From Promethearchaeota archaeon (GTDB lineage: Archaea; Asgardarchaeota; Lokiarchaeia; Sigyniarchaeales; SOKP01), in assembly GCA_016839765.1 (NCBI GenBank), contig JAEOTP010000012.1:1-64000 (forward strand): 64,000 nucleotides of DNA. The letters are read 5' to 3'. Numbering within the stretch: the stretch's first letter is position 1; each line of letters opens with the position of its first letter. The notes beneath the pieces are model-generated. The model had not been told where the DNA came from and ran no database searches. It worked only from the letters and a program-made list of their open reading frames with translations. Of the stretch, positions 2,209 to 27,795 are shown in pieces. A program made the position numbers and the translations under genes.

Positions 2209-4744
2209 ATCTAATCTCCTCCGTTAATACGTTATAAAATTTATTTATTGCATTTGCAAATTTGGCACCTTCAACCGCATTCAGATTTTCTACTATTATC
2301 CTATTACTTAATCGGGGACCAAATACTTTCTTTAACAGGTTTACTTTTTTCTGAACTTTTTGAATTCCATCGATATATCTGCACGCATCTTTTCTACATC
2401 CAATAACCATTACACCATCAAATCCACACTCAAATGATTTAAGGATAAATTCAGTATCAATACGCCCGGTGCATGGTACTTTAATTATAAACACATTGGG
2501 ATGATAAAATAATTTCTTTAATCCCGCATCATCTGCAGCAGCATAACCACAGGATTTACAGCAAAAAGCAATAATCATTGGCTTTTTATTAAATTTAGAA
2601 AAAATTTCTATTGTTTTAAGTATTTTTTTGGAAGTATCAATATTTAAATCAATAGCATTTGTAGGACACACACTTACACATGATCCACAGCCTTTACATT
2701 TAAATTTATCGATATTTATTTTATCTCCCCCGATTATTATGGCATTATATGGACAAGATACTACGCATAATCCGCACAACCCACACTTTTCTTCATTTAT
2801 TTTAATTCCTGTAAATTCTGATACTAAATAGTCATTTGAAAGAAGATAGATTATTTCTAAAGCTGTTTGATTTGTTGTAGAAATTGTAGATTTATAATTT
2901 AATGGCCCAAAAATTGTACCAACGCCATAAATACCAGATGCTAAAGTTTCTCTACTCATGAAACCATTATCGTCTAAAGAAAAGTCCATGTATTTTCGAA
3001 GACTTTTTAAATCTTTGTTGGGAATATACTTAAGGTTTAATACTATCAAATCACTTAGAAATTCAGTATCATCAGCAACAACATAGTTTATATCTTTATT
3101 ACTTTTAACAGAAATATGATTAGCATAAATAAATCTAGGGTTAGTTGATCTTAATAAAATCTGATCCTTATCATTTAATTTACTCAAATCATAAAAAACA
3201 TTAACTTTACATTTAGCATTTCTTATTTTAATATCCTCAATATATTTTTGTGCTAAAATTTCAGAGTAATCTGAGATTAATTTTGAAGGTCCGACCTCTT
3301 GAACAATAGAAACCGAATTAACTGGTTTCTTATCCGATATTCTTAATAATTTCCCTTCTGTAATACCATCAGAAGATAATATACGCTCAAATTCAGGTGA
3401 AGTAATAATATTATTTTGAGGATTATAATGGTAATCCTTTAAGTTATCACTAAAATCTGCCCCGATAGCTATAACTTTTACACCAACCTTAATTCGGACT
3501 TTTTCTGGTTTTTCATTTAAATTTATTGCATTATTAATACAAGCTCGTTCACAAATCCTGCAATCGAGACAATCTTCAATATCTTCGTGATCAATTAAAG
3601 GGATATATGGATATGAATTCTGAAAAGGGATATAAATAACTTTTCGATATGACAGACCAAAATCGTATTGATTCTTTTTCTCCTTACCACAAACATTAAC
3701 GCATTGTTTACAACCGGTACATTTCTTTTCATCTATATATCGAGGTTTTTTAATTAATTCAATTGTAAAATTTCCCACTTCTCCTGAGATTGTTTCAATT
3801 TCGCTATTTGTAAATATATTGATATTCTTTTCTTTGACTATTTCTCCAATCAATTCTGAAGTGAAACAAATAGAACAATCACCCATCTCAGAGATACGGT
3901 GCCATCTAGCTACTTTACCCCCTAATGTTGGTGATTTTTCAATAAGATATACTTTTATTCCTGCTTTTGATAAATTCAGTGCTAAAGTCATACCTGCAAT
4001 ACCACCCCCTAATATTGCACAAGCTTTCTCAACTTCAACCGTTTTAATTTGAACTTCCTTTTGAAGCTTTACACGTTCAATTCCTGCTTCTATTAATAAT
4101 TCTACTTTTTTTAGAATTAGATCCGCACTAAATTTTTCGAGATTTGAATCATGAACCCAGCAGCATTGCTCCCTAATATTAGCAATTTCTATATTTGTAT
4201 GTTCAATCACATCTTTAAAGATACGTTCAAAAATATGTTGGTGTGTTTTAGGAGAACAAGCTGCAATTACTACTTTATTTAGAAAATTTTGTTTTGCCCA
4301 AGATGTGATTTTATTCAAATTCTTTTCTTGACATAAATTATCAAATATCTTGACAGAAACAACATCATTTAACTTTGCAATATACTTCTCTAATATTTCA
4401 ATATTAATAACATTAGAAATTTCAGTATTACAATCACAGATTATTACTCCTATACGATTTATTATATTTCCTCTTTTATCCAAATATTCTAATTCTTCGC
4501 CTGATAAAATACGTTTGTTTAAACTTATTATATTTAATACTCGTTTACCATCTTCTGTCAAAAAATAAGATTTTTTATCTTTGCTGATCAATGACCCAAG
4601 CTTTTTTAAGTGGAAATTTAATTGCCCCGTTTGGGCTAAACCCAATTTTTCCATTAAATCGGTATAAGGAATGAATCCCTCTCTTTCCAAAAGTAAGAGA
4701 ATCTTTCTACGAAAAGGATGTGATAATATTGAGTAAATATTCAT
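2198..4744 (-). CDS. Fusion of ArsR-like winged HTH, HdrA-like FAD/Fe-S protein (degenerate central region) and MvhD [2Fe-2S] domain
   Basis: N-terminal LSHPFRRKILLLL..GQLNFHLKKL..YFLTEDG; HdrA motifs IICDC, AACSPKTH, NIREQCCWVH, GGGIAG, DCSIC and ferredoxin motifs; C-terminal AFCCKSCGYAAAD..PCTGRID..GCRKDACRY. Confidence 0.85.
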   Translation of the reverse strand: MNIYSILSHPFRRKILLLLEREGFIPYTDLMEKLGLAQTGQLNFHLKKLGSLISKDKKSYFLTEDGKRVLNIISLNKRILSGEELEYLDKRGNIINRIGVIICDCNTEISNVINIEILEKYIAKLNDVVSVKIFDNLCQEKNLNKITSWAKQNFLNKVVIAACSPKTHQHIFERIFKDVIEHTNIEIANIREQCCWVHDSNLEKFSADLILKKVELLIEAGIERVKLQKEVQIKTVEVEKACAILGGGIAGMTLALNLSKAGIKVYLIEKSPTLGGKVARWHRISEMGDCSICFTSELIGEIVKEKNINIFTNSEIETISGEVGNFTIELIKKPRYIDEKKCTGCKQCVNVCGKEKKNQYDFGLSYRKVIYIPFQNSYPYIPLIDHEDIEDCLDCRICERACINNAINLNEKPEKVRIKVGVKVIAIGADFSDNLKDYHYNPQNNIITSPEFERILSSDGITEGKLLRISDKKPVNSVSIVQEVGPSKLISDYSEILAQKYIEDIKIRNAKCKVNVFYDLSKLNDKDQILLRSTNPRFIYANHISVKSNKDINYVVADDTEFLSDLIVLNLKYIPNKDLKSLRKYMDFSLDDNGFMSRETLASGIYGVGTIFGPLNYKSTISTTNQTALEIIYLLSNDYLVSEFTGIKINEEKCGLCGLCVVSCPYNAIIIGGDKINIDKFKCKGCGSCVSVCPTNAIDLNIDTSKKILKTIEIFSKFNKKPMIIAFCCKSCGYAAADDAGLKKLFYHPNVFIIKVPCTGRIDTEFILKSFECGFDGVMVIGCRKDACRYIDGIQKVQKKVNLLKKVFGPRLSNRIIVENLNAVEGAKFANAINKFYNVLTEEIRFET

Positions 4745-4820
4745 TTCAAAATCCTCCCTCTTTCTCTTTTATTATGGTTTTTTTCTTAATTTTTAATTTT
4801 TGATAAATTTATTTTTCCTC

Positions 4821-4850
4821 ATGATAATGATTGTTATCGAATTATTTAAA
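4821..4850 (-). promoter_or_regulatory. TATA box plus imperfect palindrome, shared with 14875-14904
   Basis: ATGATAATGATTGTTATCGAATTATTTAAA, 23/30 identical to 14875-14904, at a similar distance from the start codon. Confidence 0.45.
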
Positions 4851-5077
4851 TCTTTGTAAAATATTGATCACATAATGTATGAGATTCATAGTCCACATTA
4901 TGAATATTAGTCATTTTTTTGTTAATTTTAGATATAACTAAAAAAATTGTCATATTAGAGTTTTTGATTAAAAAATTTATCAAATTTGAAGAAATTATTC
5001 TTGTCAAATTCCTTTTATTTTGGTAAAATAATCATTTACTTAGAAAGTAAATTACTTGTAAATTTAAACTTAAAGAG

Positions 5078-5707
5078 GTGTATAACTTAATGGAAGTTTT
5101 GGAATTTAAACCAATAAGAGACAAAAAAATCGTAGTATATATGTCATCTAAAGAGAATGCTAAATATTTCCAAAATACTGATAACTCTAAACTTATAGAA
5201 TTTTTAAAAAAGAAAAATATTGACTTTGTCACTGTTGATTTTCAAGTTGATATAAAAGAATTCAGAACAACACCATTTGCTCAAACATTAAATGAACTAG
5301 ACATACCATATTTTCAATTAGATATTCCAGATTATGCTATGGGGTATCTATATCAGGAAATTATTGAAAAACAACAATTTCAAAATGAATTATTTGAAGA
5401 ATATGAAAATATGGAAGAAAAAGAATCGTTTAAAGGGCTTAGTTTAAAAAATTGGATAGATATGTTGGGGGAGGAAATTCAGGAAAGAGAAATTTTTCTT
5501 AGTTTAAAATTAAGACCTCAATGGATTGTTAAAAAAATGTTAGATTTAGCATTATCTTACAAGAAAGATACTGTGACATTTGTTCATTTTGTTAAAGAAG
5601 ATATCTGTGAAGATATTTGTCCGCAAGTAGTTGAAAATTTAAGAGAATTAAAAGTTAAAGTTATATCTTATAATAAAAAACATACAATTCAAAATATAAT
5701 ATTTTAA
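5078..5707 (+). CDS. Hypothetical protein, paralog of 5731..6456
   Basis: 209-aa ORF with SD GAGG; shares EVLExKP and K(L/V)RxxW segments with the next ORF. Confidence 0.75.
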   Translation: MYNLMEVLEFKPIRDKKIVVYMSSKENAKYFQNTDNSKLIEFLKKKNIDFVTVDFQVDIKEFRTTPFAQTLNELDIPYFQLDIPDYAMGYLYQEIIEKQQFQNELFEEYENMEEKESFKGLSLKNWIDMLGEEIQEREIFLSLKLRPQWIVKKMLDLALSYKKDTVTFVHFVKEDICEDICPQVVENLRELKVKVISYNKKHTIQNIIF

Positions 5708-15235: not shown

Positions 15236-17272
15236 ATGTCTGAAATACAGACCAAAGTGAGAATCGGAGTTTATATATGTAGATGAGGAGTTAATATTAG
15301 TGCTTCAATCGATTGTAATCTTATTAGAGATTATGTTGAAGCACTACCAAACGTTTTTGTTGCTAAAGTAAATGATTTTACTTGTAGTGATCCAGGACAA
15401 AATATTATCAAAAACGATATTTTAGAATTAGACTTAAATCGGGTAGTTGTTGCAGCTTGTACACCAAAAATTCATGAATCCACCTACCGATTAGTTTTAG
15501 CTCAAGCAGGATTAAGCCCTTATTACTTCCAAATGGTTAATCTTCGCGAACATTGCTCATTTACTTACTCCAGAAATAAGAGAAGCATTACTGAAAAAGC
15601 TATAAGGTTAGTGCAAGCAGGGATAAATCGTGCCAGAGAATTAGAAATTATACCTTATAAAAAGATATCAGTAGAAAAATCGGTATTAATTATCGGTGCT
15701 GGTATTGCAGGGATGAATGCTGCATTAGACTTAGCAAATCATGGAATAAATGCAAATTTAGTCGAAAAGGAAGCCACAATTGGCGGAAAAATGGCACAAT
15801 TAGATCGAATATATCCTACAGACGATTGTGCTATATGAGTTCTAGCGCCTATTATGGTTAGTGCTTCAAAACATCCAAATATAAAATTATTTACCTATAG
15901 TGAAGTTATTAAATTCGAGGGCATCCCAGGAAATTATAATGTTAAAATACACAAGAAACCTCGTTTTATTAATGAAAATAAGTGTACTGGTTGTGGATTA
16001 TGTACGACTAAATGTCCAATAAAAGTACCTAACGAATTTAACAGAGGTATTGGGGAACAAAACGCGATTTACATACCTTTTCCTCAAGCAGTGCCCAGAA
16101 TTGCTCTAATTGATAAGAGTGTATGTATAGAATGTAAAAATTGTCAAAAATGTTGTCCCACAGAAGCTATTGAATTAGATCAAACCTCAGAATATATCGA
16201 TTTAAAAGTTGGTGCGGTAATTATTGCCACAGGTTGGGATGAATATCCAATTATGAAAAAAAATGAATATAAATATGGTATTTATCCAGATGTTATTACT
16301 CAAATAGAGTTAGAACGTATGTTAAGTCCAGTTGGACCAACCGGTGGTCAAGTGTATAGAATTTCTGATGGAAAAATCCCCAAAACAGTAGCTATGATTC
16401 AATGTGTGGGTTCAAGATCCTTAAAAGGGAATCCCTATTGCTCAGGAGTATGTTGTAATGTTGCACTTAAAAATGCTCAATTGTTAAAGCAAGAATATCC
16501 AGATATAGAAATTGTTATCTTTTATATAGACATGCGGACATGGGATAAAGGCAATGAAGAATATTATAGAAAAGCGAGAAAAGCGGGAATAATGATGATT
16601 CGTGGAAAAGTAGGAGACATTCGAGAAGATACTAGCATAAAGAAAATAAAACTTACAGCTTCTTCAACTTTAACCAATGATTTCATTACCATGAATACCG
16701 ATTTAGTTGTATTATCTACAGGTATGGTCCCTTCTAAAAAAGCGGCACAAATTATTGAGACATTAGGTATAGCTAAAGATATGAATGGGTTTTTAAGTGA
16801 AGTTCATGGATGCCTAAAACCTCAAGAGACAAATAATTTAGGTATTTATATATGCGGCTGTGCTACTGGACCTAAAAATATCCCTTATTCAGTATCAACT
16901 GCATTAGCTGCAGCAAGTAAAGCATCTATTTTGCTTTCTAAAGATACAATAACTCAAGAATTAATCATCGTTGAAGTAAATGAAAATCTATGTATGGGTT
17001 GCCATAGATGTGAAAAACTATGTAATTTTAAGGCAATAAAAATTAATGGAGAGAATATAGCTGAAGTAGACGACTTAAAATGTAAAGGTTGCGGAGTTTG
17101 TGTTACATCATGTCCCGCTCGAGCAATTGACCTTAAGTATTACAGAGATAAACAAATTATTGAAGAGATAAAAGGGATTTGTAGTACTGAACTTGAATAT
17201 AAGGAAGAATTTATTGAATCTATTGAACTTATTTGGAAAAAGATTGAAGCTTTAGCTCCTTATCAAACATAA
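15236..17272 (+). CDS. hdrA: Heterodisulfide reductase subunit A, probable selenoprotein with two Sec (U17, U201), 678 aa
   Basis: SD AGGTGA then ATG at 15236. One frame reads MSEIQTKVRIGVYICR-TGA(15284)-GVNI...YPTDDCAI-TGA(15836)-VLAPIMVS. Both TGAs occupy Cys positions of HdrA motifs (CxCG, DCxxC). ORF-track pieces 15533..15838 and 15854..17272 are in this frame. Confidence 0.9.
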
Positions 17273-17279
17273 TCTGAAA

Positions 17280-17536
17280 ATGAATGATCCTCTTAAAAAA
17301 ATGTTAGTTGAGAGGTAACTAACCCATAGCATGGGTTTTCAGAAAACTATAAAATAATAAATGGTATGAATTTGTATCATCATGAGCTAGAAAATGAAGT
17401 AAGGTTTAAAGTCGGAGAAGCATGGATGATGAATATCATCAATATTGCCAGAAATTATGGTCATAACTATTCGAAAATTGCATTCGGATTAGCAAGTAAG
17501 ATGATATTGGGAGAGGAAATTAAAATTTCTAATTAA
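17280..17536 (+). pseudogene. Deletion relic of a paralogous copy of the 5731 gene and the mtd-like gene
   Basis: NDPLKKMLVER, then 17366-17536 ENEVRFKVGEAWMMNII..AFGLASKMILGEEIKISN*. These match 5731 NDPLKMLIKKR and EDEVRYKVREAWMMMNIL, and the 6506 C-terminus AFKLACRILFGEEIKITV*. Confidence 0.75.
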
Positions 17537-17765
17537 TTTTTTTTTAAATTTTTAAAATTATTTTCAAGAGATATTTTAAAAACACATCTATTCCTTGATT
17601 TAGCCTTCTGAGGATTGACTTCATGAATGATATTAATATTTCCATTAATGGAGATAAGTCTATATAGAATTTCTAAAACCTTTTAACCTCTTTTCTTCAA
17701 AGAATTTTATTATTCTTATTCAAAAAGCATCCTAAATTATTATGAAAAAGAACTAATTAACTTGT

Positions 17766-17852
17766 CGAATAATGTTCGCTCAATCTTACATTATCCGAAA
17801 TGCCTTCGCTTTAATGCCCGAATGATAGGATAATATTCGGCATATTTATAAA
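17766..17852 (+). promoter_or_regulatory. Three phased CGAA-N5-TTCG-like operator sites plus TATA box upstream of gdh1
   Basis: Sites at 17766, 17796 and 17827 (30/31 bp apart); TTTATAAA at 17845. Confidence 0.7.
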
Positions 17853-17932
17853 TCTTAAATAACATATATAAAATGAAGAGATATAATCTAATCAATTAAA
17901 ATGGAAGAATTGAAACTGAACTTAATTCGAAA

Positions 17933-19288
17933 ATGTTAGAAGATAAAAAAAAGGATCAGGCAAAAATTGTTTATCCAGAAGCTTTAATTACTACTGACCA
18001 AATTGAAGTTTCTAGAATTGTAGAGAAAGAAATACTAATTGAAACTAACCCATTTGAAATGGCAAAAAAACAAATCGATATTGTTGCTGAAAAGATAGGA
18101 TTAGATCCAAATATAAGGGAATATCTCAAAAGAGTGGAACGCTCATTAATTGTATCAATTCCAATTATGATGGATAATGGCTCTTTAAAGATATTTGAAG
18201 GATATCGGGTACATCATTCTACTGTTAGAGGTCCTGGAAAAGGTGGTATTAGGTATTCACCAGATGTCTATTTGGATGAAATTAAAGCTTTAGCCACATG
18301 GATGACATTTAAATGTAGTCTTTTAAATTTGCCTTTAGGTGGGGCAAAAGGGGGAGTTTGCGTAGACCCTCGAAAGTTATCAGAGGGAGAATTAGAGCGT
18401 CTAACTCGGAGATATACTGCTGAAATTATAAATGTTATAGGCCCAGATATAGATATTCCCGCTCCAGATATTAATACAGGTCCTCAAATTATGGCTTGGA
18501 TTATGGACACCTATTCTATGCATAAAGGGAGAGCTATTCCTGGAGTAGTGACAGGAAAACCAATAGAAATAGGAGGTTCAGTTGGGAGAGAAACTGCAAC
18601 TGGAATGGGTTTATTTTATGTTCTCGAAGCTTTGTGCAATAAAATAAATATAGATCTAAAAACCCAGAATATTGTTGTTCAAGGATTTGGCAATGTTGGG
18701 GGTAATATTGCTAATATTTTACATGAGAAAGGTTGTAATATTATCGCTGTCTCGGACATTACTGGAGGTTTATACGCCAAAAGTGGATTAAATATAAAAG
18801 AGTTATTAGAATGGAGAGATAGAAATAATTATCTAAAAGATTTTCAAAATAAAAATTATAAATTTATCACTAATGAAGATATACTCACGATTAAATGTGA
18901 TATTTTAATCCCAGCAGCAATAGAAAACCAAATAACACAATCAAATGCTTATAATATTAATTGTAAAATTATATTAGAAGGTGCTAATGGACCAACTACT
19001 CCAAAAGCAGATGGTATTTTGAAAAAACGGGGAATTATTGTTGTACCTGATATTCTTGCTAATGCTGGAGGTGTATGTGTCTCATATTTCGAGTATATTC
19101 AAGATATCCATAGCTATTTTTGGAATTTAAACAGGATTAATCAAGAACTAGAAAATATTCTTGTTGAGGCATTTGAAGATGTTTACAGTTTATCTAAAGA
19201 AAAATTTGTCACTCTGCGTACAGCTGCATACATGATTGCTATTTTGAAATTAGCTAAGGCAATCGAATTAAGAGGTATATTCCCATAA
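17933..19288 (+). CDS. gdhA: Glutamate dehydrogenase (Glu/Leu/Phe/Val DH family), paralog 1 with N-terminal extension
   Basis: [41 protein letters not shown]. Confidence 0.93.
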   Translation: MLEDKKKDQAKIVYPEALITTDQIEVSRIVEKEILIETNPFEMAKKQIDIVAEKIGLDPNIREYLKRVERSLIVSIPIMMDNGSLKIFEGYRVHHSTVRGPGKGGIRYSPDVYLDEIKALATWMTFKCSLLNLPLGGAKGGVCVDPRKLSEGELERLTRRYTAEIINVIGPDIDIPAPDINTGPQIMAWIMDTYSMHKGRAIPGVVTGKPIEIGGSVGRETATGMGLFYVLEALCNKINIDLKTQNIVVQGFGNVGGNIANILHEKGCNIIAVSDITGGLYAKSGLNIKELLEWRDRNNYLKDFQNKNYKFITNEDILTIKCDILIPAAIENQITQSNAYNINCKIILEGANGPTTPKADGILKKRGIIVVPDILANAGGVCVSYFEYIQDIHSYFWNLNRINQELENILVEAFEDVYSLSKEKFVTLRTAAYMIAILKLAKAIELRGIFP

Positions 19289-19308
19289 TTTATCCTCTGG
19301 GTGATTTA

Positions 19309-19503
19309 ATGTCAACCAAAAATATATTAAAATCTGAAAATGATAAGAATAGTAAATATCCAGCAAAATATGAGGGATTTCTTAAACTCAAAAATGGAAA
19401 GAAATTATTAACAAGGCCTGTAAAACTTAATGATGAAAGAATGGTTCAGGAGTTGCATTTTTCCTTAGATAAACAAGAAAATGCTTCTGTATCTATTAGA
19501 TAG
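19309..19503 (+). pseudogene. Truncated N-terminal fragment of a GNAT acetyltransferase-like domain
   Basis: YPAKYE..LKNGKKLLTRPVKLNDERMVQELHFSL resembles the start of GNAT domains found fused to acyl-CoA enzymes; ends after 64 aa; SD GGTGA present. Confidence 0.5.
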
Positions 19504-19749
19504 GAAATCTTTAGTTTAATTTTTAAAACTTTAAAGGAGGTTGGACAAAATATTCAAAGAAAACCACGAGAAGCATTCTAATAAAAAAATTTGTAATTTA
19601 GATAATCTACAAAATAATTCAAATTCTTCTTTTAAACAAAATAATAGTATGGATGCAAAAATAAAACATAGAAAAAGAAGAGAAGGAGATTAGAAATTGA
19701 TTTGTTTAAAAAAAAAGAACTTACTTATTCCGAGAAATTCATAACAATT

Positions 19750-20652
19750 TTAAACTTTTTTTTGAATTTTAAATTTTACTTTGTGAGTCATTTTATAAAG
19801 ATCTATAAAACTTGACACATTAATTGGGTGTTGAATTCCATCTAATGTTTTAATTTCATCATTAATAAATCTCCAGAGATTTTTTTCATCTTTAGCAATA
19901 ATTTTTACTAATAAATTATGATCTCCAGTTGACGATGCAACCAATTGTATATCGTCATAATCGGCTAACTTTTTTGCTATTTCCTCCAATTTCATTGGAT
20001 CGACAGATAAACCAAGAATGGCTATAGATTCATATCCCACTTTAAATGGATCTACGAGAGTATCAAATTTTGTTATGATTCCTTCTTTTACCATATTTTG
20101 TACTCGATTATGAATTGTACTCGCAGCTAAATTTACGTTTTTACTTAAATCTTTATAAGAGATTCTATAATTTTCTTGTAAAAAATTAAGAATTTCTTTA
20201 TCTTTTTCATCAAATTGCATTTTTAGAACTTTATCTGAAACTTTTTCACTTTCAATTCTGTGTCGTTCAATTGCATACAAGATTGCCCGAGTTAAACTTG
20301 GTCCATTAAGTTCACTTTTTACTATATAATCTTGGGCTCCCTTTTGAAGAGATAGTAATGCAAAATCTTTATCATCTAATCCAGTTAAAATTATTATAGG
20401 AATTGCATCAGTAAAACTTAAAACTCTTTCTAAAGTAGATTCTCTATCGCTATCTGGTAGAGTTAAATCTAATAAAATAACATCAAAGTTTTTAGTTTTA
20501 AGATTATTCAAACTTTCAGAAAGCCTAGAATATGCCTCTAAATCAAATTTAAATTCTGCAGAATCTTTTAATAATTCTTTAATAAGACGTACATCAGCAG
20601 AATTATCTTCAATTAGTAATATATTAAAATTCTTATTCTCTATATTATTCAC
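19750..20652 (-). CDS. Response regulator receiver fused to an Lrp/AsnC transcription factor
   Basis: ILLIEDN..LLDLTLPD..ILTG..GAQDYIVK, then DEKDKEILNFLQEN..LAASTIHNRV..STGDHNLL. Confidence 0.9.
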   Translation of the reverse strand: MNNIENKNFNILLIEDNSADVRLIKELLKDSAEFKFDLEAYSRLSESLNNLKTKNFDVILLDLTLPDSDRESTLERVLSFTDAIPIIILTGLDDKDFALLSLQKGAQDYIVKSELNGPSLTRAILYAIERHRIESEKVSDKVLKMQFDEKDKEILNFLQENYRISYKDLSKNVNLAASTIHNRVQNMVKEGIITKFDTLVDPFKVGYESIAILGLSVDPMKLEEIAKKLADYDDIQLVASSTGDHNLLVKIIAKDEKNLWRFINDEIKTLDGIQHPINVSSFIDLYKMTHKVKFKIQKKV

Positions 20653-20989
20653 CTAAAAATATTTGTTATGGATAAAGAGATAAAATCTTTTTCAATTTTA
20701 TTTTCCTTATTCTGAATAATATTCATTTTAATATAAATAATTATTTTATTTAGAATTTAAAGAGATTCATTTTAATTATACCATTTTTAAGAGTAAAAGG
20801 CAAATTATAATTATTTTTATAAATTCTAAACTGAAATCTCATTTTTTGAACTAGAAAATATGATATTTTTGTTCGCTAAAATTTATTTTATATTGGACAA
20901 TATTCTAATTAATGAAGAATTTTTCCTATGATTTTTTCTCAATCCTTTTTAAAAATTTAAATTAATGAATACATAACAAAATAAGAGAA

Positions 20990-22057
20990 ATGATTGTAAT
21001 GAATTCGAAATTTAAAGAAGAAAGAATGAGATTTGTGATTATTTTAATTTTAATTATTATCTCGTGTTTATTAATTTATTCTATCGAGTTAATACTTAGA
21101 ACTTCTATCCTAGTTGCACATTTTTTCTATTTTCCTTCAATTTTGGCATGTCTATGGTGGAAAAAAAAAGGTTTAATTGTTCCTATTTTTTTAGCTACAA
21201 TACTTATAATTTTTCATTTAATTCTGGATTATGGGGTTTTTACTCTAGAGACCATAAATAATTTTCTGAGAGGCATCTCACTAGTCGTTGTTGGAATAGT
21301 AGTATCATCCCTATCTGAACAAATTTCAAGAAGAGAAATCGAATTTAATGAAATTATGGAGGATTTAAAACGCTCTAACGAAGATTTACAACAATTTGCT
21401 TATGTAGCATCCCACGATCTACAAGAACCTTTACGAGCAATTGTAAGCTTTTCTCAACTTCTAGAAGATAAATATCAAGATAAAATCGATACGGACGGTA
21501 AAGAATTTATTCACTTTATTACAGAAGGAGCAAAAAAAATGAACACCCTTATAAAAGATTTATTATCGTATTCAAGAATCACAACACACGCTCAACCTCC
21601 TAAATTAACTAATCTTGAGATGATTTTACAGGATGCCTTATTTAATTTACACGAATCAATAAAAGAAAGTGGTGCAGTTATAACTTATGATAAAATGCCA
21701 ATATTAAAAGTAGATAAAACTCAATTTATACAGTTATTTCAAAACCTTCTTAGTAATGCTATAAAATTCCGTAGAAAAGAACCACCAAGAATACATATCG
21801 GTTTAAAGAAAATTAATAGTGGATGGTTATTCTCTGTAAAGGATAATGGCATAGGTATTGAGTTAGAATATTTTAACAAGCTTTTCAATATTTTTTACCG
21901 TTTACATACTAAAGAAGAATATTCAGGTACCGGGATAGGATTACCTATATGTAAAAAAATAGTTCAACGATATGGTGGAAAAATATGGGTAGAATCCAAA
22001 TTTGGTAAAGGATCAACTTTTTTCTTTACAATTTTTCCAGAAAAAATTAAAGATTAA
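20990..22057 (+). CDS. Membrane sensor histidine kinase
   Basis: About four TM helices; H-box FAYVASHDLQEPL, N-box NLLSNAIKF, DNGIG, GTGIGL. Confidence 0.93.
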   Translation: MIVMNSKFKEERMRFVIILILIIISCLLIYSIELILRTSILVAHFFYFPSILACLWWKKKGLIVPIFLATILIIFHLILDYGVFTLETINNFLRGISLVVVGIVVSSLSEQISRREIEFNEIMEDLKRSNEDLQQFAYVASHDLQEPLRAIVSFSQLLEDKYQDKIDTDGKEFIHFITEGAKKMNTLIKDLLSYSRITTHAQPPKLTNLEMILQDALFNLHESIKESGAVITYDKMPILKVDKTQFIQLFQNLLSNAIKFRRKEPPRIHIGLKKINSGWLFSVKDNGIGIELEYFNKLFNIFYRLHTKEEYSGTGIGLPICKKIVQRYGGKIWVESKFGKGSTFFFTIFPEKIKD

Positions 22058-22069
22058 TGGTGTGGAATA

Positions 22070-22516
22070 GTGAATGAATACAATAGAACTAAGGCTAAAA
22101 TCTTACTCATAGAAGATAATGCGGCAGATATTCGGCTAACGAAGGAAGTTCTTCAAGAGAGTAAAATTGTGAGTAGATTAGACGTTGTGAGGGATGGTGT
22201 TGAAGCGATTGATTTCTTAAAGAAGAGAGGTAAATTTTCTAATACTAGTAAACCAAATCTAATCCTTTTGGATTTAAATTTACCAAAGAAGAATGGTTTT
22301 GAGGTATTGGAAATTATTAAACAAGATAAAGAATTAAAAAGAATTCCTATAGTAATATTAACCGTATCTGATGCAAAAGAAGATTTAATAAAAGCTTATA
22401 ATCTCTATGCTAATTCTTATGTAATTAAACCATTAGAAATGAAGGAATTCTATAAAATTATTAACTCAATCGTAGATTTTTGGTTTACGATTGTAAAGCA
22501 TTTTGAGGATGAATAA
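22070..22516 (+). CDS. Single-domain response regulator (Rcp1-like)
   Basis: LLIEDN, LLDLNLPKKNG, ANSYVIKP, FWF. Confidence 0.92.
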   Translation: MNEYNRTKAKILLIEDNAADIRLTKEVLQESKIVSRLDVVRDGVEAIDFLKKRGKFSNTSKPNLILLDLNLPKKNGFEVLEIIKQDKELKRIPIVILTVSDAKEDLIKAYNLYANSYVIKPLEMKEFYKIINSIVDFWFTIVKHFEDE

Positions 22517-22614
22517 ATAGGAATTAAAATAGATTTGCTTTTGTTGATTTGATGATTATATTATGTTAAAAATAAAAAGATTTTATTTTACTACATTACT
22601 AGCTGAAATCATTA

Positions 22615-23208
22615 TTAGACAATTTTGATTGATTGTGTTGATTTATATATATCTAAAAAGTTTGATACGTGAATTTGCGGCTTTATTCCATTTATTGTCT
22701 TGATTTTTATATTAATAAAATTCCAGAGTGACTTTTCATCTTTAGCAATGATCTGAGCGATTATATCATGATCTCCTGATGAAATTGCTACAAGTTGTGT
22801 CTCATTATAGGATGCAATCTTTTCTGCGATATCATTCATTTTTATAGGATCGACTGAAAGACCTACTATTGCTATAGTATTATAGCCGATTTTCACTGGA
22901 TCTATTATAGCTCCAAATTGTTTTATTATTTCCTCTTCAATCATCTTTTTGACTCTATTATGAATTGTACTCGCAGCTAGTTTTAACTTTTCTGATAATT
23001 CCCGATATGAGATTTTATCATTTATTTGTAATATATTTAATATTTTCTTATCTATTTTATCAATAGATTGACAATTCCAAGGACGATTTTCACGATCATC
23101 ATTAAAAATGACACCATGTTCTATTGAAAACCCTTCACAGCTATGATAAATCTTTCTTCCTAGTGAGTATTCTTCTCCACATTTAGGACAAGTTACTATA
23201 ATAATCAA
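22615..23208 (-). CDS. Lrp/AsnC transcription factor with a Cys-containing (zinc-ribbon-like) N-terminus
   Basis: TCPKCG..C..C, then IDKKILNILQ..LAASTIHNRV..SGDHDII. Confidence 0.88.
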   Translation of the reverse strand: MIIIVTCPKCGEEYSLGRKIYHSCEGFSIEHGVIFNDDRENRPWNCQSIDKIDKKILNILQINDKISYRELSEKLKLAASTIHNRVKKMIEEEIIKQFGAIIDPVKIGYNTIAIVGLSVDPIKMNDIAEKIASYNETQLVAISSGDHDIIAQIIAKDEKSLWNFINIKIKTINGIKPQIHVSNFLDIYKSTQSIKIV

Positions 23209-23332
23209 CTCGTTTTTATTAATTAAAATTTAAAAATTCAATTTCAATAAAATTCTGAATAAAGTTCATTTTAATCTTCTTCTTAATTTTATACGAATGT
23301 AGTTTCTCTAATATGATATATGTATTTTATAA

Positions 23333-23419
23333 TATTTAAAACTATCGAAGATAGTTCGATTATCATGTCATTTTCCGTATAATATATGGAATAAGACAAT
23401 TAATAATGAAGAATGTTCG
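23333..23419 (-). promoter_or_regulatory. TATA box plus three phased CGAA-N5-TTCG-like sites upstream of the lrp gene
   Basis: Sites at 23346, 23376 and 23407 (30/31 bp apart); minus-strand TTTAAATA at 23333-23340. Confidence 0.65.
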
Positions 23420-23680
23420 TATAATTTTATAAAAATATTACAATATTTGAGTTGTATGAGTTTTAGAATAAATAACTAATTTTTGAATAGATTTTTTATT
23501 GGATTATTATGTGGAGTTAGATATTTCTAATTTTTTAATCTTTAAATAAATTATTTAGATAATTTTTAGGTTGATATTCTTTTTTAAAAATCATTAAAAA
23601 AGGAGAATAATTTTATAAGTCTTTTCAGTGATGTGTCTTCACGTTTGTATAAATTTGGAAACTTTAGACCGTTTTAAGAG

Positions 23681-24472
23681 CTATAAAACAAATATTTTTA
23701 CAAATGAAAATATTCCAATTCCAATCGCATATACTGGTATGAAATATTTCCAGATTTTATTAGGGACAACTCTTACTAAATAAGGAGCAGAAAGGGCGGC
23801 AAAAAACCCTCCAGTAAATAATGATGGTAGAAGAACAAGATCTATTTCAACACCTCCAAAACTTATTAGAAAAAATGTCAAAATCCCCACAAATGAGACA
23901 ATTGATTCAGCAAACGATACAATTGCAGTGGCGCTTTTTTCATAAACACCAGAAAAAATTTGCCCCATAGTAATAACTGGTCCATATCCTCCTCCTCCAA
24001 TTCCTTTATTAAAACCTGCGATTACTGAAAATCCAATTAGTAGCTTAGGGTGTGTTTTAGAACACTCCATTTTCCTTAATTTAACTCTAATAAACCCTGA
24101 AACTCCCATGAAAATAACTAGGATTGCAACATAGGTTTTAATTACAATATCATGTATTTTTAAAGCAAAATAACCTAGAAAAATTGATATAAATATAGCT
24201 AAACAACCAAAGAAAGCCATTATAAGCCCAATTTTTGTGGCATCGTTTAAAGGACGGAAAGAATAGTGAACATTCTTAAATTCATGATCGAAAAAAGTAT
24301 CTACTAAGCCTGTTATTGCTTCTGAAATTAGAATAGTTGGAACAATTTGAAGAGGGTTATAACCTAATAAGAATAATAAAGGTGATAAAGCTGTACCAAA
24401 ACCCATACCTGCCATAGAATCCATTGATTCAAATAAAAATGCCAATAAAATTATAATTAAGACTAATTTCAT
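23681..24472 (-). CDS. Sulfite exporter TauE/SafE family membrane protein
   Basis: DSMAGMGFGTALSPLL and GIGGGGYGP repeats, multiple TMs. Confidence 0.88.
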   Translation of the reverse strand: MKLVLIIILLAFLFESMDSMAGMGFGTALSPLLFLLGYNPLQIVPTILISEAITGLVDTFFDHEFKNVHYSFRPLNDATKIGLIMAFFGCLAIFISIFLGYFALKIHDIVIKTYVAILVIFMGVSGFIRVKLRKMECSKTHPKLLIGFSVIAGFNKGIGGGGYGPVITMGQIFSGVYEKSATAIVSFAESIVSFVGILTFFLISFGGVEIDLVLLPSLFTGGFFAALSAPYLVRVVPNKIWKYFIPVYAIGIGIFSFVKIFVL

Positions 24473-24638: not shown

Positions 24639-25016
24639 TTTTAGTTACTCAACCTTTAATTAAGCTTCATTAATTATCATTATATATAATTAAATATAAT
24701 AATAATTATTTGTTATTTAAAAGTTATGTTTTTTCAACATTTATAACGATAAATATCCATTCAAGAATGTTTAAAAACAGTATTTTATAAGTGATATATG
24801 GTAAGAGAAATATGAATATATTAATAAGAACAAATTTTTATCGAAAATTATTCAAAAAAAAATAAAATTGATATTTAATGCCAAAAGCAAATTATCCAAT
24901 CCCTAAAGGGATGGTTCAAAATAATGAAAAAATTTTATTAAAAATTGTTGAAAATTCTAATATTAGAAAGTTCATTTATAAATATTTAATCCTTTAATCT
25001 CTAGATTCTTGAAGTA

Positions 25017-26267
25017 TTAAATCCAACCTCTCAATCTCATAGCTTCAATAACCCTATCAATAGAAATCATATATGCTCCCATGCGGTTATGAGTATTGTA
25101 CTGCTTGGCATGCTCTATAGTGGAACGGTAAGCATTTGTCATTATTCGGTCTAAGGCTGCAAATACCTCTTTTTCAGTCCAGAAATATTGATAATATCCT
25201 TGCACCATTTCAAAATATGATACAGTTACTCCTCCGGCATTACACAAGAAATCTGGAATTAAAACTATATCGTTATTAAATAAAATTCTATCAGCACTTG
25301 GAGTTGTAGGACCATTTGCTAACTCTGCTACAATTTTAACATTAACATCTTTTGCGTTTTTCTCGGTAATCACATTTTCAAGAGCTGCAGGAACTAATAT
25401 ATCACATTCTAATTCTATTAGTTCTTCATTAGTAATTTTCTGTGTGCCTTCTAATCCGACAACTGTTCTTGTCTTTTCTTTATGATTTGCCGCCTTGTAT
25501 GGATCAATACCATCTTTATTAAAAATACCTCCTTTTGAGTCAGAAACCGCCACAATTTTACAACCAAAATCATCTTGTAAAATTTTAGCAGCCCAAGAAC
25601 CTGCATTTCCATATCCTTGTACGGCTACAGTTGCTTCAGTTAAATCCAATCCAATATCTTTTGCGGCTTCTCTAATTGTAAAAATACCACCTTTCGCTGT
25701 AGCGATTGACCTTCCAGCACTTCCTCCTAATGCTAGTGGTTTTCCAGTAATTATCGAAGGAGAATGCTTACGAACAATTTTCTCGTATTCGTCCATCATC
25801 CAGGCCATAATTTGGGGGTTTGTATAGACATCTGGAGCGGGAACATCAGTGTAAGGGCCAATAACATCCGCTAATTGCCTGATATAACTCCTAGCTAGGG
25901 TCTCCAATTCCCTATTACTCATTCCTTTTGGATTACAAATAATACCACCTTTCGCTCCCCCTAAGGGAATATCAACACAGGCGGTCTTCCAAGTCATCCA
26001 TGCACTAAGAGCTTTAACCAATGAGGCACTTTCATCCGGATGCCATCTTATACCACCCTTCATAGGTCCCCTTGCTGAGTTATATTGACTTCGAAAACCT
26101 TTAAAAGATTTAATTTTTCCATCATCCATTTTCATGGTAATCCTTACTTCTACAAACCTTTCAGGCTCACTTAATACATCATAGATATCATTGTCAATTC
26201 CTTTTAAATTACATGCTTCTCTTAATTGAGTTTGTGATATCTTAAATGGGTCTAAACTTTCACTCAT
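25017..26267 (-). CDS. gdhA: Glutamate dehydrogenase, divergent paralog 2
   Basis: [38 protein letters not shown]. Confidence 0.93.
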
Positions 26268-26538
26268 TATTTTTTAATCCCTATCCAACTAATTGATTTT
26301 ATAAATGTATTTTTCGAAATTTTTTTCAATATTTCTATATAATGGGTATAATTATTTAAACAGTTTTCAATTTATTTGGGGAAGAAGTTGGGAAATTTCA
26401 GAATTTAGCAATTTCCTAATAGTGATTGATATATTTTATCCATAATTTTTATATTTTATATTATTCTTAAATTTAAATTAACAATTTTCAATATTTTGAT
26501 TATAATTTATTAATGAATTTTTGGAATGGGAGTTATAG

Positions 26539-27795
26539 ATGACTACTGAATTAAATCCGTTTGATGTTGCAAAAAAGCAAATTGATATTGTAGCCAAAGA
26601 GATGGGATTAGACCCAAACATAAGGGAATATCTCAAAAGAGTGGAACGCTCATTGATTGTATCAATTCCAATCATGATGGATGATGGCTCTTTAAAGATA
26701 TTTGAAGGATATCGGGTACATCATTCTACTGTTAGAGGTCCAGGAAAAGGTGGTATCAGATATTCACCAGATGTAAATTTGGATGAAGTTAAAGCTTTAG
26801 CTACATGGATGACCTTTAAATGTAGCCTTTTAAATTTACCTTTGGGTGGGGCAAAAGGAGGTGTCCGTGTGAACCCTCGAAAGTTATCAGAGAGAGAATT
26901 AGAGCGTCTAACTCGGAGATATACTGCTGAAATTATAAATGTTATAGGGCCAGATATAGATATTCCCGCGCCTGATATCGCCACTGATAAAAAAGTTATG
27001 AGCTGGATCATGGATACATATTCAATGCAAAAAGGAAGATCTACTCCTGGAGTGGTGACAGGAAAGCCTATTGAAATAGGAGGGTCTGTAGGAAGAGAAC
27101 AAGCAACAGGCATGGGTATATACTTTGTACTTCAAGGTTTATGTGAAAAACTAAATTTCAATTATAAGGAATTGAGTTATGTAGTACAAGGATTTGGAAA
27201 TGTAGGTGGTACAATTGCAGAATTATTGTATAATGATGGATGTAAAATTTTAGCAATTTCGGATATCTCAACGGGTATTTTTTATGAGGGCGGATTAGAT
27301 ATTCCAAAGCTTTTAGAATGGGTCAAATATGGTAATTATTTAAAAGATTATAAGGACGATCGGTATAAATTAATAACAAATGATGAACTAATCACGTCAA
27401 AATGCGATATTTTAATACCCGCAGCTATTGAAAACCAAATTGCCAAAGATAATGCAAATAATATTGATTGTAAGATAATTTTGGAAGGAGCAAATGGGCC
27501 CACAACCCCAAAAGCAGATAAAATATTATTTAAAAAAGGGATCCACGTAGTACCTGACATTTTAGCAAATAGCGGGGGAGTGTGTGTCTCTTATTTCGAA
27601 TATATTCAAGATATTCATTCATATTTCTGGAAATTAGATCGCATCAATAAAGAACTCAAACGGATCATTATTGAAGCATTTGAAGAGACATATAGGATAT
27701 CTCAAAAAAGAAAAATAAACCTTCGTACGGCGGCTTATGTTATTGCTGTTGGAAGACTTGCTAAAGCTATAGAGCTAAGAGGGTTTTTTCCTTAA
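26539..27795 (+). CDS. gdhA: Glutamate dehydrogenase, paralog 3 (close to paralog 1)
   Basis: Same GDH motifs; high identity to 17933..19288. Confidence 0.93.
   Translation: MTTELNPFDVAKKQIDIVAKEMGLDPNIREYLKRVERSLIVSIPIMMDDGSLKIFEGYRVHHSTVRGPGKGGIRYSPDVNLDEVKALATWMTFKCSLLNLPLGGAKGGVRVNPRKLSERELERLTRRYTAEIINVIGPDIDIPAPDIATDKKVMSWIMDTYSMQKGRSTPGVVTGKPIEIGGSVGREQATGMGIYFVLQGLCEKLNFNYKELSYVVQGFGNVGGTIAELLYNDGCKILAISDISTGIFYEGGLDIPKLLEWVKYGNYLKDYKDDRYKLITNDELITSKCDILIPAAIENQIAKDNANNIDCKIILEGANGPTTPKADKILFKKGIHVVPDILANSGGVCVSYFEYIQDIHSYFWKLDRINKELKRIIIEAFEETYRISQKRKINLRTAAYVIAVGRLAKAIELRGFFP

Follow-up and report, generated by a model that had tools for sequence, protein, structure and literature searches.

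Phased 13-bp palindromes as putative operators of a receiver-Lrp regulator in a two-component cassette of Asgard archaea

Palindromes of 13 bp with the form YGAA-N5-TTCR mark the promoters of gdh1, which encodes a glutamate dehydrogenase, and of neighbouring regulator genes in an Asgard archaeal gene cassette, and it is quite likely that they serve as operators of the cassette's phosphorylation-gated Lrp protein, which would wrap the core promoter. A kinase signal is thereby probably wired straight to amino-acid catabolism. The first-pass annotation had taken the palindromes for operators of an Lrp regulon that links two-component signalling to glutamate dehydrogenase. That they are genuine, conserved cis elements of the Lrp/FFRP type and link the two-component cassette to gdh1 and to the regulator genes is supported here.

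Cassette genes

The cassette comprises five genes:

17933-19288, + strand: gdh1, a glutamate dehydrogenase paralogue (Pfam ELFV_dehydrog_N and ELFV_dehydrog)
19750-20652, - strand: REC-Lrp, a hybrid response regulator (Pfam; receiver, long helix, AsnC-type HTH and RAM domain)
20990-22057, + strand: membrane histidine kinase (DUF4118-like transmembrane region, HisKA, HATPase_c)
22070-22516, + strand: stand-alone receiver protein (Pfam)
22615-23208, - strand: the lrp gene, a zinc-ribbon-Lrp fusion (zinc ribbon in residues 1-48, then AsnC HTH and RAM)

The combination of gdh1, REC-Lrp, kinase, receiver and zinc ribbon was found only in one Lokiarchaeia-type Asgard family. The HisKA kinase is syntenic and adjacent in every cassette, the stand-alone receiver is syntenic as well, and gdh1, whose product is lengthened by about 33 aa at its N terminus, adjoins REC-Lrp in most of the cassettes examined. 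Most members of genus g1 encode the zinc ribbon as a separate ORF of approximately 75 aa; the fusion occurs in one clade only. Because in most species the only HTH in the cassette is that of REC-Lrp, this protein is the primary candidate binder of the palindromes.

Alignment of 39 orthologues shows an intact receiver active site in REC-Lrp: E13, D14, D60, T88 and K110 vary little or not at all, and neither does the HTH segment L-A-(A)-S-T-(I)-H. In an AF2 model (mean pLDDT 78), helix 5 of the receiver runs on as a helix (residues 115-140) into the HTH. The archaeal DNA-binding response regulators Bat, LtrR and FilR1 likewise join a receiver to an HTH output, an arrangement that is rare in archaea, but their outputs are HTH_10, wHTH or wHTH-DUF1724 whereas that of REC-Lrp is a complete Lrp/AsnC module with RAM, an architecture absent from the archaeal response-regulator census (PMC5847659).

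Promoter sites

At the gdh1 promoter the following elements were located (the palindromes are given without strand):

17766-17778: site U2, CGAATAATGTTCG, with exact palindromic half-sites
17796-17808: site U1, CGAAATGCCTTCG
17827-17839: site P, AGGATAATATTCG, with a degenerate left half
17845-17852, + strand: TATA box TTTATAAA, 5 nt past P
17917-17929: site D, TGAACTTAATTCG, 90 bp downstream of P, with the ATG 4 nt further on

Every gdh1 promoter examined has a site 30/31 bp upstream of P, whereas U2 is restricted to part of the family; in two other genomes (G019 and G013) U2 retains its half-sites around a variable centre. The right half of P (TTCG) is retained in all ten promoters of the first set, always with a 5-nt gap to the TATA box, and TTTATAA or TTTATTAT is conserved at that distance in all lineages. 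D is the most strongly conserved site of this promoter (GAA and TTCG are retained in 10/10), and its distance from P is 90 bp in 11 of 15 promoters, 91 in two, 92 in one and 102 in one. From the usual archaeal TATA-to-TSS distance, transcription is predicted to start near 17875, which places D downstream of both the TATA box and the likely TSS.

At the lrp promoter, listed in transcriptional order (minus strand), the elements are:

23407-23419: site U2, TGAAGAATGTTCG
23376-23388: position U1, CGTATAATATATG, degenerate (3 mismatches)
23346-23358: site P, CGAAGATAGTTCG
23333-23340, - strand: TATA box TTTAAATA, 5 nt from P
23256-23268: site D, TGAATAAAGTTCA as read on the + strand, 90 bp downstream of P along transcription

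Here P has conserved half-sites and a variable centre in four species and beyond, and U2 occurs in the clade with the fused zinc ribbon and in some others. Position U1 is included solely on the ground that a consensus site stands at the same offset in other lineages (CGAAGAATATTCG in G005 and CGAATAAAATGCA in G024). The gap between P and TATA was 5 nt in 12 of 14 promoters when scored by script; in the promoters of G020 and G018, read directly, the TATA box lies about 4 nt past P. With a TSS predicted near 23310, D again lies within the putative transcript. Across 17 zinc-ribbon promoters D lies 89-92 bp from P and 18 to 60 nt from the start codon; its position follows the promoter rather than the start codon.

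The first-pass annotation had described two triplets of sites, each with 30/31-bp spacing and a TATA box 5 nt from its proximal member. All six 13-mers are present at 17766, 17796, 17827, 23346, 23376 and 23407, each array has steps of 30 and 31 bp, and both TATA boxes are 5 nt away. Of the six, AGGATAATATTCG and CGTATAATATATG are weak, with PWM scores of 8.6 (a poor match in this genome) and 0.9, respectively. The triplet did not stand as a unit: the third upstream site is lineage-specific, and the conserved unit is instead the pair U1 and P (30/31 bp) plus D, 90 bp downstream of P. That earlier reading overlooked D in both promoters, as well as the site in the REC-Lrp promoter:

20730-20737, - strand: TATA-like TTTATATT
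20713-20725: TGAATAATATTCA, 4 nt downstream (minus strand) of the TATA-like sequence

Of 17 loci, 16 carry this 13-mer or a closely similar one, as do 6 further loci; the site falls between the TATA box and the likely TSS. It and the D sites of gdh1 and lrp thus occupy repressor-type or wrapping positions, and for this reason activation of gdh1 is one of several readings.

The activation reading, as first proposed, has both Lrps switching gdh1 on from the upstream triplets in the manner of Ptr2, with lrp autoregulated and the downstream DNA without a role. The invariant 5-nt gap between P and TATA, as reported for Ptr2, LysM and Ss-LrpB (PMC2995911), speaks for it. It is nevertheless an improbable account of the whole layout, since U2 is absent in most lineages, the most strongly conserved gdh1 site lies downstream of TATA, that of the REC-Lrp promoter comes after TATA but before the predicted TSS, and the cassette of most species has a single Lrp.

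A further TATA-like string, TTTTATAAA, is present at 23425, and a + strand transcript near 23450 had been suggested from it. Strings of the TTTAWAWA type are found roughly once per kb on each strand, with four in this 472-bp spacer (19% GC), and this one is retained only in genomes with a REC-Lrp at least 94% identical; the suggestion is without comparative support.

Chance and conservation

In the window (the whole 64,000-nt stretch of DNA analysed) the exact motif CGAA-N5-TTCG occurs four times versus 0.28 expected, a number reached in none of 100 shuffles. Genome-wide it is unenriched (15 versus approximately 12.6 expected), with 3 of the 15 in the gdh1 and lrp promoters. With steps of 29-32 bp and no more than 4 mismatches over all three sites, the 3.3-Mb genome has exactly two phased triplets, those of gdh1 and lrp, and ten third-order-Markov simulated genomes have none; at up to 6 mismatches the count is at background level (8 vs 6.5). 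Eleven intergenic PWM matches score at least 13 in the 3.3 Mb, six of them inside the 7-kb cassette, and pairs at 30/31, 61 or 90 bp with comparable scores were found nowhere else in the genome. The six sites are beyond chance. The Lrp regulon that had been proposed is confined to the cassette: the genome-wide scans turned up no further phased array, so it would be a local one.

The sites behind the PWM were picked for their similarity, which is offset by hold-out loci and by a blind enumeration of all 256 four-base palindromic halves with spacers of 1-11 in 23 diverged orthologous promoters. The enumeration ranked CGAA-N5-TTCG first (18 of 23 promoters versus 0.01 expected), followed by its shifted forms GAAT-N3-ATTC and TGAA-N5-TTCA; the genomes compared, all of them uncultured MAGs, are kin, so these and the other counts are non-independent. 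Half-sites are retained while centres and flanks change, leaving a footprint. The hold-out loci, absent from model building, show the same geometry; at one of them, from a different genus, the array stands before an operon that encodes a 95-aa ORF, a Usp and a CoA-transferase-GNAT protein. The sites accompany the cassette across at least three genera; at one locus of genus g16 (L044), where REC-Lrp is in an operon with the kinase, no strong sites lie nearby.

Archaeal histone dimers likewise step about 30 bp, and the spacers are AT-rich (19-27% GC), so that the periodicity could in principle reflect hypernucleosome positioning or low-complexity DNA. We regard this as extremely improbable: the conserved parts are the G/C-containing GAA/TTC halves around variable centres, a pattern characteristic of dimeric HTH proteins, a tandem-repeat search was negative, and composition-matched simulated genomes give no such arrays.

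DNA recognition

The segment LAASTIHNRV, which the first-pass annotation had noticed in both local Lrps, is common to the two proteins. Aligned to FL11 (PH1519, the protein of PDB entry 2E1C, solved with DNA), a feast/famine regulatory protein of Pyrococcus OT3/horikoshii, both have Y24, A34, A35, S36, T37 and H39, which are invariant or nearly so among the 39 orthologues. FL11 contacts (T/C)GAAA through L24, A34, E35, S36, T37 and H39 (PMC2715240); four of the six (Ala34, Ser36, Thr37 and His39) are identical here, and positions 24 and 35 differ (L and E vs Y and A). As here, its site is a 13-bp palindrome (abcdeWWWedcba), with the natural consensus TGAAAWWWTTTCA and the SELEX optimum CCGAAA[AAT/ATT]TTTCGG, which contains CGAA-N5-TTCG (PMC2715240). 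Judged by these residues, both local Lrps would be expected to read the palindromes.

That another factor, an Lrp paralogue or a non-Lrp protein, binds the palindromes beside REC-Lrp by coincidence is very unlikely. A paralogue on contig C17 carries S36, T37 and H39, so that it might recognise half-sites of this kind, and binding by REC-Lrp is itself a prediction. Yet the full residue set is found in no Lrp paralogue of this genome other than the two cassette proteins, the sites follow the cassette through its genera while the rest of the genome has no phased arrays, and they occupy the regulators' own promoters.

Proposed regulation

From the observed sites, their geometry and conservation, their restriction to the cassette and the match to the FL11 code, we infer binding, wrapping, what phosphorylation does and in which direction the genes are regulated as follows, the sequence by itself being compatible with activation as well as repression. 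REC-Lrp, a response regulator with a complete Lrp module as output, would be the operator-binding protein in every species, joined by the zinc-ribbon-Lrp paralogue in the clade containing this genome. In the promoters of gdh1 and the zinc-ribbon(-Lrp) gene, P would hold a dimer that abuts TATA across the 5-nt gap, and one or two more would occupy U1 and U2 in 30/31-bp steps upstream; D, three steps of 30 bp downstream, would correspond to about +42 to +54 in the predicted transcript. Known archaeal Lrps wrap DNA on clustered sites of 13-17 bp that are spaced by two or three helical turns, and their activator sites lie directly upstream of BRE/TATA at a constrained distance (PMC2995911). Dimers at U1 and P would thus sit where Ptr2, LysM and Ss-LrpB recruit TBP, while an octamer-type assembly that held D as well would enclose both TATA and the start site in about 120 bp of wrapped DNA and so close the promoter. 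The adjacent membrane kinase, by phosphorylating the receiver, and possibly a RAM-domain ligand would set the oligomeric state and hence the choice of complex. Since 90 bp corresponds to 8.6 turns of relaxed B-DNA, placing P and D on the same face requires the wrapped geometry; no recognisable site is found at P+30 or P+60, between P and D, so the octamer would hold these positions non-specifically.

Pure repression of the FL11 type, with an oligomer on P, the U sites and D excluding TBP/TFB or RNA polymerase until a signal or ligand dissociates it and derepresses gdh1, is somewhat unlikely. The sites flank TATA and the TSS 90 bp apart, the lysine-bound FL11 octamer covers a long promoter stretch, LrpA blocks polymerase from directly downstream of TATA (PMC2995911), and the REC-Lrp promoter site is at a repressor position. 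Occlusion, however, does not need the exact 5-nt gap between P and TATA, which is invariant. The TATA centre, about 15.5 bp from that of P, would by this geometry fall midway between dimer positions, its minor groove facing outward and accessible to TBP.

The switch between wrapped and TBP-recruiting complexes that we favour has partial parallels. FL11 also has a multi-site promoter of its own and an octamer that wraps DNA (PMC2995911), as predicted here, but this Lrp of about 150 aa stands alone, responds to lysine or arginine and is directed at lysine biosynthesis, whereas here the Lrp module is on a receiver beside a histidine kinase and the target is gdh. For FL11, PMC2715240 and PMC2995911 describe no such fixed layout with P and TATA 5 nt apart and D at 90 bp. 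Ss-LrpB of Sulfolobus solfataricus wraps about 100 bp, alternates between positive and negative autoregulation and activates neighbouring metabolic genes (PMC4046817, PMC2995911); it differs in its 15-bp box (TTGCAAAATTTGCAA), in R39 versus H39 here, in being without a receiver domain, and in having no reported downstream site at a constant 90 bp. The dimer site by BRE/TATA and the auxiliary upstream sites are shared with Ptr2 (Methanocaldococcus jannaschii) and LysM (S. solfataricus), which activate by TBP recruitment (PMC2995911); here activation is putative, and the conserved extra site past the start site and the receiver domain are additional. At its own promoter, the single REC-Lrp site between TATA and start would be in the classical position for negative autoregulation. 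The site at 20713-20725 resembles in position that of LrpA of Pyrococcus furiosus, a stand-alone Lrp with an otherwise different promoter layout, which represses its own gene from the downstream border of TATA by blocking recruitment of RNA polymerase (PMC2995911).

Gene content

The window carries a cassette in the order gdh1 (glutamate dehydrogenase), REC-Lrp (a receiver-Lrp hybrid response regulator), histidine kinase, stand-alone receiver and zinc-ribbon gene, and this cassette recurs in many congeneric and confamilial genomes. The last gene, called the lrp gene in the first-pass annotation, encodes in the window a fusion of a zinc ribbon to an Lrp module (ZnR-Lrp).

Genes of the cassette (window coordinates, strand, product)
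17933-19288, + strand, gdh1, glutamate dehydrogenase with an N-terminal extension of ~33 aa
19750-20652, - strand, receiver-Lrp fusion (REC-Lrp)
20990-22057, + strand, membrane HisKA kinase (HisKA plus HATPase_c)
22070-22516, + strand, stand-alone receiver
22615-23208, - strand, zinc-ribbon-Lrp fusion (ZnR-Lrp; zinc ribbon, residues 1-48)

Past the ZnR-Lrp gene lie a TauE-family transporter gene and then two further gdh paralogues, the three glutamate dehydrogenase genes (17933-19288, 25017-26267 and 26539-27795) falling within 10 kb. Among these, only gdh1 has the predicted operators and cassette linkage, and no operator site was found in the divergent gdh2/gdh3 promoter (26268-26538). On the 3' side of gdh1, a 64-aa ORF (19309-19503, also 19541-19693) is 51% identical to the GNAT end of a 630-aa acetyl-CoA hydrolase/transferase-GNAT protein encoded in another genus's cassette (locus L045, 4291-6183), and from this likeness it looks like a relic of such a gene. 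Further upstream (15533-17272), neighbouring ORFs of 101 and 472 aa lie on the same strand with a TGA-terminated gap alone between them.

Probable operator motif

The first-pass annotation had described three 13-bp palindromic sites ahead of a TATA box at both the gdh1 and lrp promoters, and the positions it gave for all six 13-mers and both TATA boxes, with the 30/31-bp steps, are confirmed exactly. The whole genome (3.32 Mb, 29.7% GC, 96 contigs) was searched for the underlying word, CGAA-N5-TTCG, which is not enriched genome-wide (15 copies vs ~12.6 expected from 4-mer counts), with three of the 15 copies in the two promoters; the window holds four copies vs 0.28 expected. The genome-wide triplet scan that the annotation had proposed, run for sets of three sites spaced by 29-32 bp and allowing a total of no more than 4 mismatches, returned exactly two arrays, both those already reported, and none in ten simulated third-order-Markov genomes. 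At 6 mismatches the yield is background (8 vs 6.5).

Blind enumeration of every 4-base palindromic half with spacers of 1-11 in 23 diverged gdh1 and zinc-ribbon promoters ranked CGAA-N5-TTCG first (18/23 promoters vs 0.01 expected), followed by its shifted forms GAAT-N3-ATTC and TGAA-N5-TTCA. The general motif is YGAA-N5-TTCR with an A/T-rich centre. In the frequency matrix of 48 distinct sites, positions 2-4 are G (0.98), A (0.91) and A (0.97), mirrored at positions 10-12, and the centre is mostly A/T. Across the three closest species the CGAA and TTCG half-sites are unchanged, and variation falls in the flanks and the five bases of the centre. No tandem repeats were detected in the promoters. 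An RNA element at these positions was considered and rejected, as there is no Rfam match in 17500-24000, the motif also stands on the upstream side of TATA, and a stem of 4 bp has too little strength to be of consequence.

Archaeal Lrp sites are 13-17 bp long and clustered two or three helical turns apart (PMC2995911). The cassette sites have the form of Lrp/AsnC (FFRP) operators, namely 13-17-bp imperfect inverted repeats with an A/T-rich centre, and they are likewise clustered, with 30/31-bp steps in all promoters and an additional 90-bp step.

Promoter architecture

In what follows, U2, U1 and P are the sites upstream of TATA, P being the proximal one, and D is a site downstream of TATA.

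Promoter features (window coordinates, feature)
17766, 17796 and 17827, gdh1 sites U2, U1 and P
17845-17852, gdh1 TATA
17917-17929, gdh1 site D, TGAACTTAATTCG, 90 bp downstream of P and 4 nt ahead of the ATG
23407, 23376 and 23346, lrp-gene sites U2, U1 and P
23333-23340, - strand, lrp-gene TATA
23256-23268, lrp-gene site D, 90 bp downstream of P
20713-20725, REC-Lrp promoter site, TGAATATTATTCA

By sequence comparison, the conserved unit is U1, 30/31 bp, P, a 5-nt gap, TATA, and D at 90 bp from P. The triplet proposed earlier as the operator unit gives way to this arrangement, U2 being present in only part of the family. The lrp site at 23376 is degenerate in the window's clade, and other lineages have a consensus site at the same position. 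The gap from P to TATA is 5 nt in all script-scored promoters (10 gdh1 and 12 of 14 ZnR promoters, the remaining two ZnR promoters having been picked at a different site). P thus lies directly upstream of BRE/TATA at a constrained distance, as do the dimer sites from which Ptr2, LysM and Ss-LrpB activate (PMC2995911). P was located by an automatic TATA regular expression, which missed a few loci with variant TATA strings; it was read by eye for genomes G013, G020 and G018, which was not needed for G022. At one locus (L037) D and U1 alone were located, 121 bp apart.

The distance from P to D across 15 gdh1 promoters is 90 bp (n=11), 91 bp (n=2), 92 bp (n=1) or 102 bp (n=1, the cassette of G005), and across 17 zinc-ribbon promoters it is 89-92 bp. 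Between D and the zinc-ribbon start codon the interval ranges from 18 to 60 nt, so D follows the promoter and not translation. The positions at P+30 and P+60 are without a recognisable site and D is kept at +90 bp, which bears on promoter coating of the type described for FL11 (PH1519), the Pyrococcus feast/famine regulatory protein. Two genomes, G018 and G020, have gdh1 and the zinc-ribbon gene in divergent orientation around one common array, D-90-P-30-P'-91-D'. Neither this shared array, nor D at the two promoters, nor the site at the REC-Lrp promoter figured in the first-pass annotation.

The REC-Lrp promoter site is nearly invariant and lies 4 nt after the TATA-like string TTTATATT, and so falls within the stretch from TATA to the likely start. 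This single site suggests negative autoregulation.

A second TATA-like string at 23425 had also been noted, and a + strand transcript near 23450 suggested as something to look for. The string, TTTTATAAA, is indeed present, but only the closest relatives keep it and no conserved feature lies beyond it. Strings of this kind turn up roughly once per kb on each strand, with four in the lrp-upstream spacer, and there is no site 90 bp further on (sequence at 23497), so a second promoter with a + strand transcript was rejected.

Candidate DNA-binding and signalling proteins

FL11 reads (T/C)GAAA via L24, A34, E35, S36, T37 and H39, and its SELEX optimum, CCGAAA[AAT/ATT]TTTCGG (Yokoyama et al., PMC2715240), includes the cassette motif CGAA-N5-TTCG. 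In an alignment with FL11 (DNA complex in PDB entry 2e1c), the residues of both cassette Lrps at these positions are Y24, A34, A35, S36, T37 and H39, so that four of the six predicted contacts (A34, S36, T37 and H39) are identical to those of FL11. Both proteins match Pfam HTH_AsnC-type and AsnC_trans_reg, and their predicted contact residues fit the half-site. Across 39 REC-Lrp orthologues these contact positions vary little or not at all, and the full set is found in no other Lrp paralogue of the genome, a paralogue on contig C17 having S36, T37 and H39. Only in one clade does the zinc-ribbon protein include an HTH; elsewhere it is a free-standing ORF of ~75 aa lacking that domain. This makes REC-Lrp the conserved candidate binder, with ZnR-Lrp as an additional paralogue of the same predicted specificity.

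The REC-Lrp receiver matches Pfam Response_reg and has the response-regulator active-site residues, with E13, D14, D60, T88 and K110 invariant in the 39 orthologues. A HisKA plus HATPase_c kinase, the expected cognate kinase, is divergent from or adjoins REC-Lrp at every locus. In the AlphaFold model of REC-Lrp (mean pLDDT 78), receiver helix 5 is prolonged into a long helix that leads into the HTH and RAM domains. One complex prediction of the REC-Lrp dimer with the zinc-ribbon protein of G018 scored 0.00, which is evidence neither way on binding. In G020, the REC-Lrp orthologue (locus L024, contig C100, ~711-720) lacks an ATG, GTG or TTG where its start is expected, and the conserved N-terminus runs from a GTA directly behind two stop codons; an unusual start or an error in assembly may explain this.

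The zinc-ribbon domain (~45 aa) has invariant C5, C8, H20, C22, H29, W42, N43 and C44 and no Pfam match (window 22615-23208, loci L024-L030 and L034). Under the same predicted operators, the zinc-ribbon ORF is stand-alone in most species and fused to the Lrp module in one clade.

Proposed switch and significance

Archaeal Lrp oligomers wrap DNA, LrpA represses from just downstream of TATA (PMC2995911), and Ss-LrpB switches between activation and repression by cooperative filling of three sites (PMC2995911, PMC4046817). In the cassette promoters a P site of activator type is paired with a D site that lies three steps of 30 bp further downstream, and two complexes can be envisaged. In the first, U1 and P would be occupied by dimers or a tetramer, with TATA left unobstructed; the second would be an octamer-type wrap that runs from P to D and buries the start site. 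By paper geometry, the TATA centre would lie ~15.5 bp from the P centre, midway between adjacent dimer positions, with its minor groove facing outwards. Phosphorylation by the neighbouring kinase, and perhaps a RAM-domain ligand too, could choose between the two. We tentatively propose, as a possibility that may well prove wrong, that REC-Lrp is a phosphorylation-gated nucleosome-like switch: unphosphorylated U1/P dimers would aid TBP onto the TATA exactly midway between two dimer positions, and a phosphorylation-driven octamer would take in D and enclose the start site in a wrap of ~120 bp, which would silence the gene, although the two states may be reversed. Sequence cannot decide the sign of regulation at gdh1.

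Glutamate dehydrogenase is a key enzyme of the amino-acid fermentation that sustains cultured Lokiarchaeia-type organisms. The cassette offers a complete testable chain in Asgard archaea, from membrane kinase through receiver-Lrp fusion and a predicted 13-bp operator with fixed promoter geometry to glutamate dehydrogenase. Lrp operator arrays, autoregulation and wrapping are already well known; new are the Lrp module as a response-regulator output, the fixed bracketing of the core promoter by sites, and the gdh link in Asgard archaea. Full-text literature searches turned up no publication describing REC-Lrp regulators or an Lrp-controlled gdh in Asgard archaea. In archaea, DNA-binding response regulators are rare, for which reason two-component systems there are thought to work mainly by contacts between proteins, and a 2018 census of archaeal response regulators does not list the REC-Lrp architecture (PMC5847659). 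If the switch reading is true, no Asgard two-component system before it would have had a direct transcriptional output defined down to operator and target, and its output domain would be a complete Lrp module, missing from that census. The operator prediction is checkable with few oligonucleotides, since four of the six predicted contact residues are solved in FL11, and P at TATA with D 90 bp downstream makes a clean system for studying how one Lrp oligomer might both activate and repress.

Distribution and scope of the predicted regulon

Among 251 sampled genomes of the phylum, REC-Lrp orthologues were found in the window's own family only (29 of 54 genomes, five genera); the query found no orthologue in 197 genomes of other families. 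All compared genomes are MAGs and kin, so the counts throughout overstate independence. Loci left out of the motif definition show the same geometry. In another genus, a U1/P/TATA/D array lies ahead of an operon of a 95-aa ORF, a Usp protein and an acetyl-CoA hydrolase/transferase-GNAT protein. One genus has REC-Lrp, and strong sites nearby are absent.

Position weight matrix (PWM) matches scoring at least 13 number 11 in the intergenic DNA of the genome, six of them inside the 7-kb cassette; the density of the 34 coding-DNA matches accounts for the other five. A wider regulon was rejected, as PWM and mismatch scans of the whole genome gave no further phased pair or triplet of comparable score. 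The Lrp regulon linking two-component signalling to gdh1, as first put forward, is partly supported. On these scans the predicted regulon is confined to the cassette, with gdh1, REC-Lrp and ZnR-Lrp as its members.

Upstream of the TauE-family gene, CGAAAATTATTCA (24842-24854) scores 13.2 with the PWM and is kept in G019, without an adjacent TATA or phased partner. In G013 and G024 the TauE gene stands divergently to gdh1 and may therefore be a loose member of the cassette. At another locus of the genus (L031, contig C4 of G014, 2311-5221), gdh is absent and several YGAA-N5-TTCR-like sites lie between two divergent stand-alone Lrp genes, whose products are 57-61% identical to the Lrp part of ZnR-Lrp. 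Judging from these sites and proteins, the specificity class of REC-Lrp and ZnR-Lrp may have other uses in the genus.
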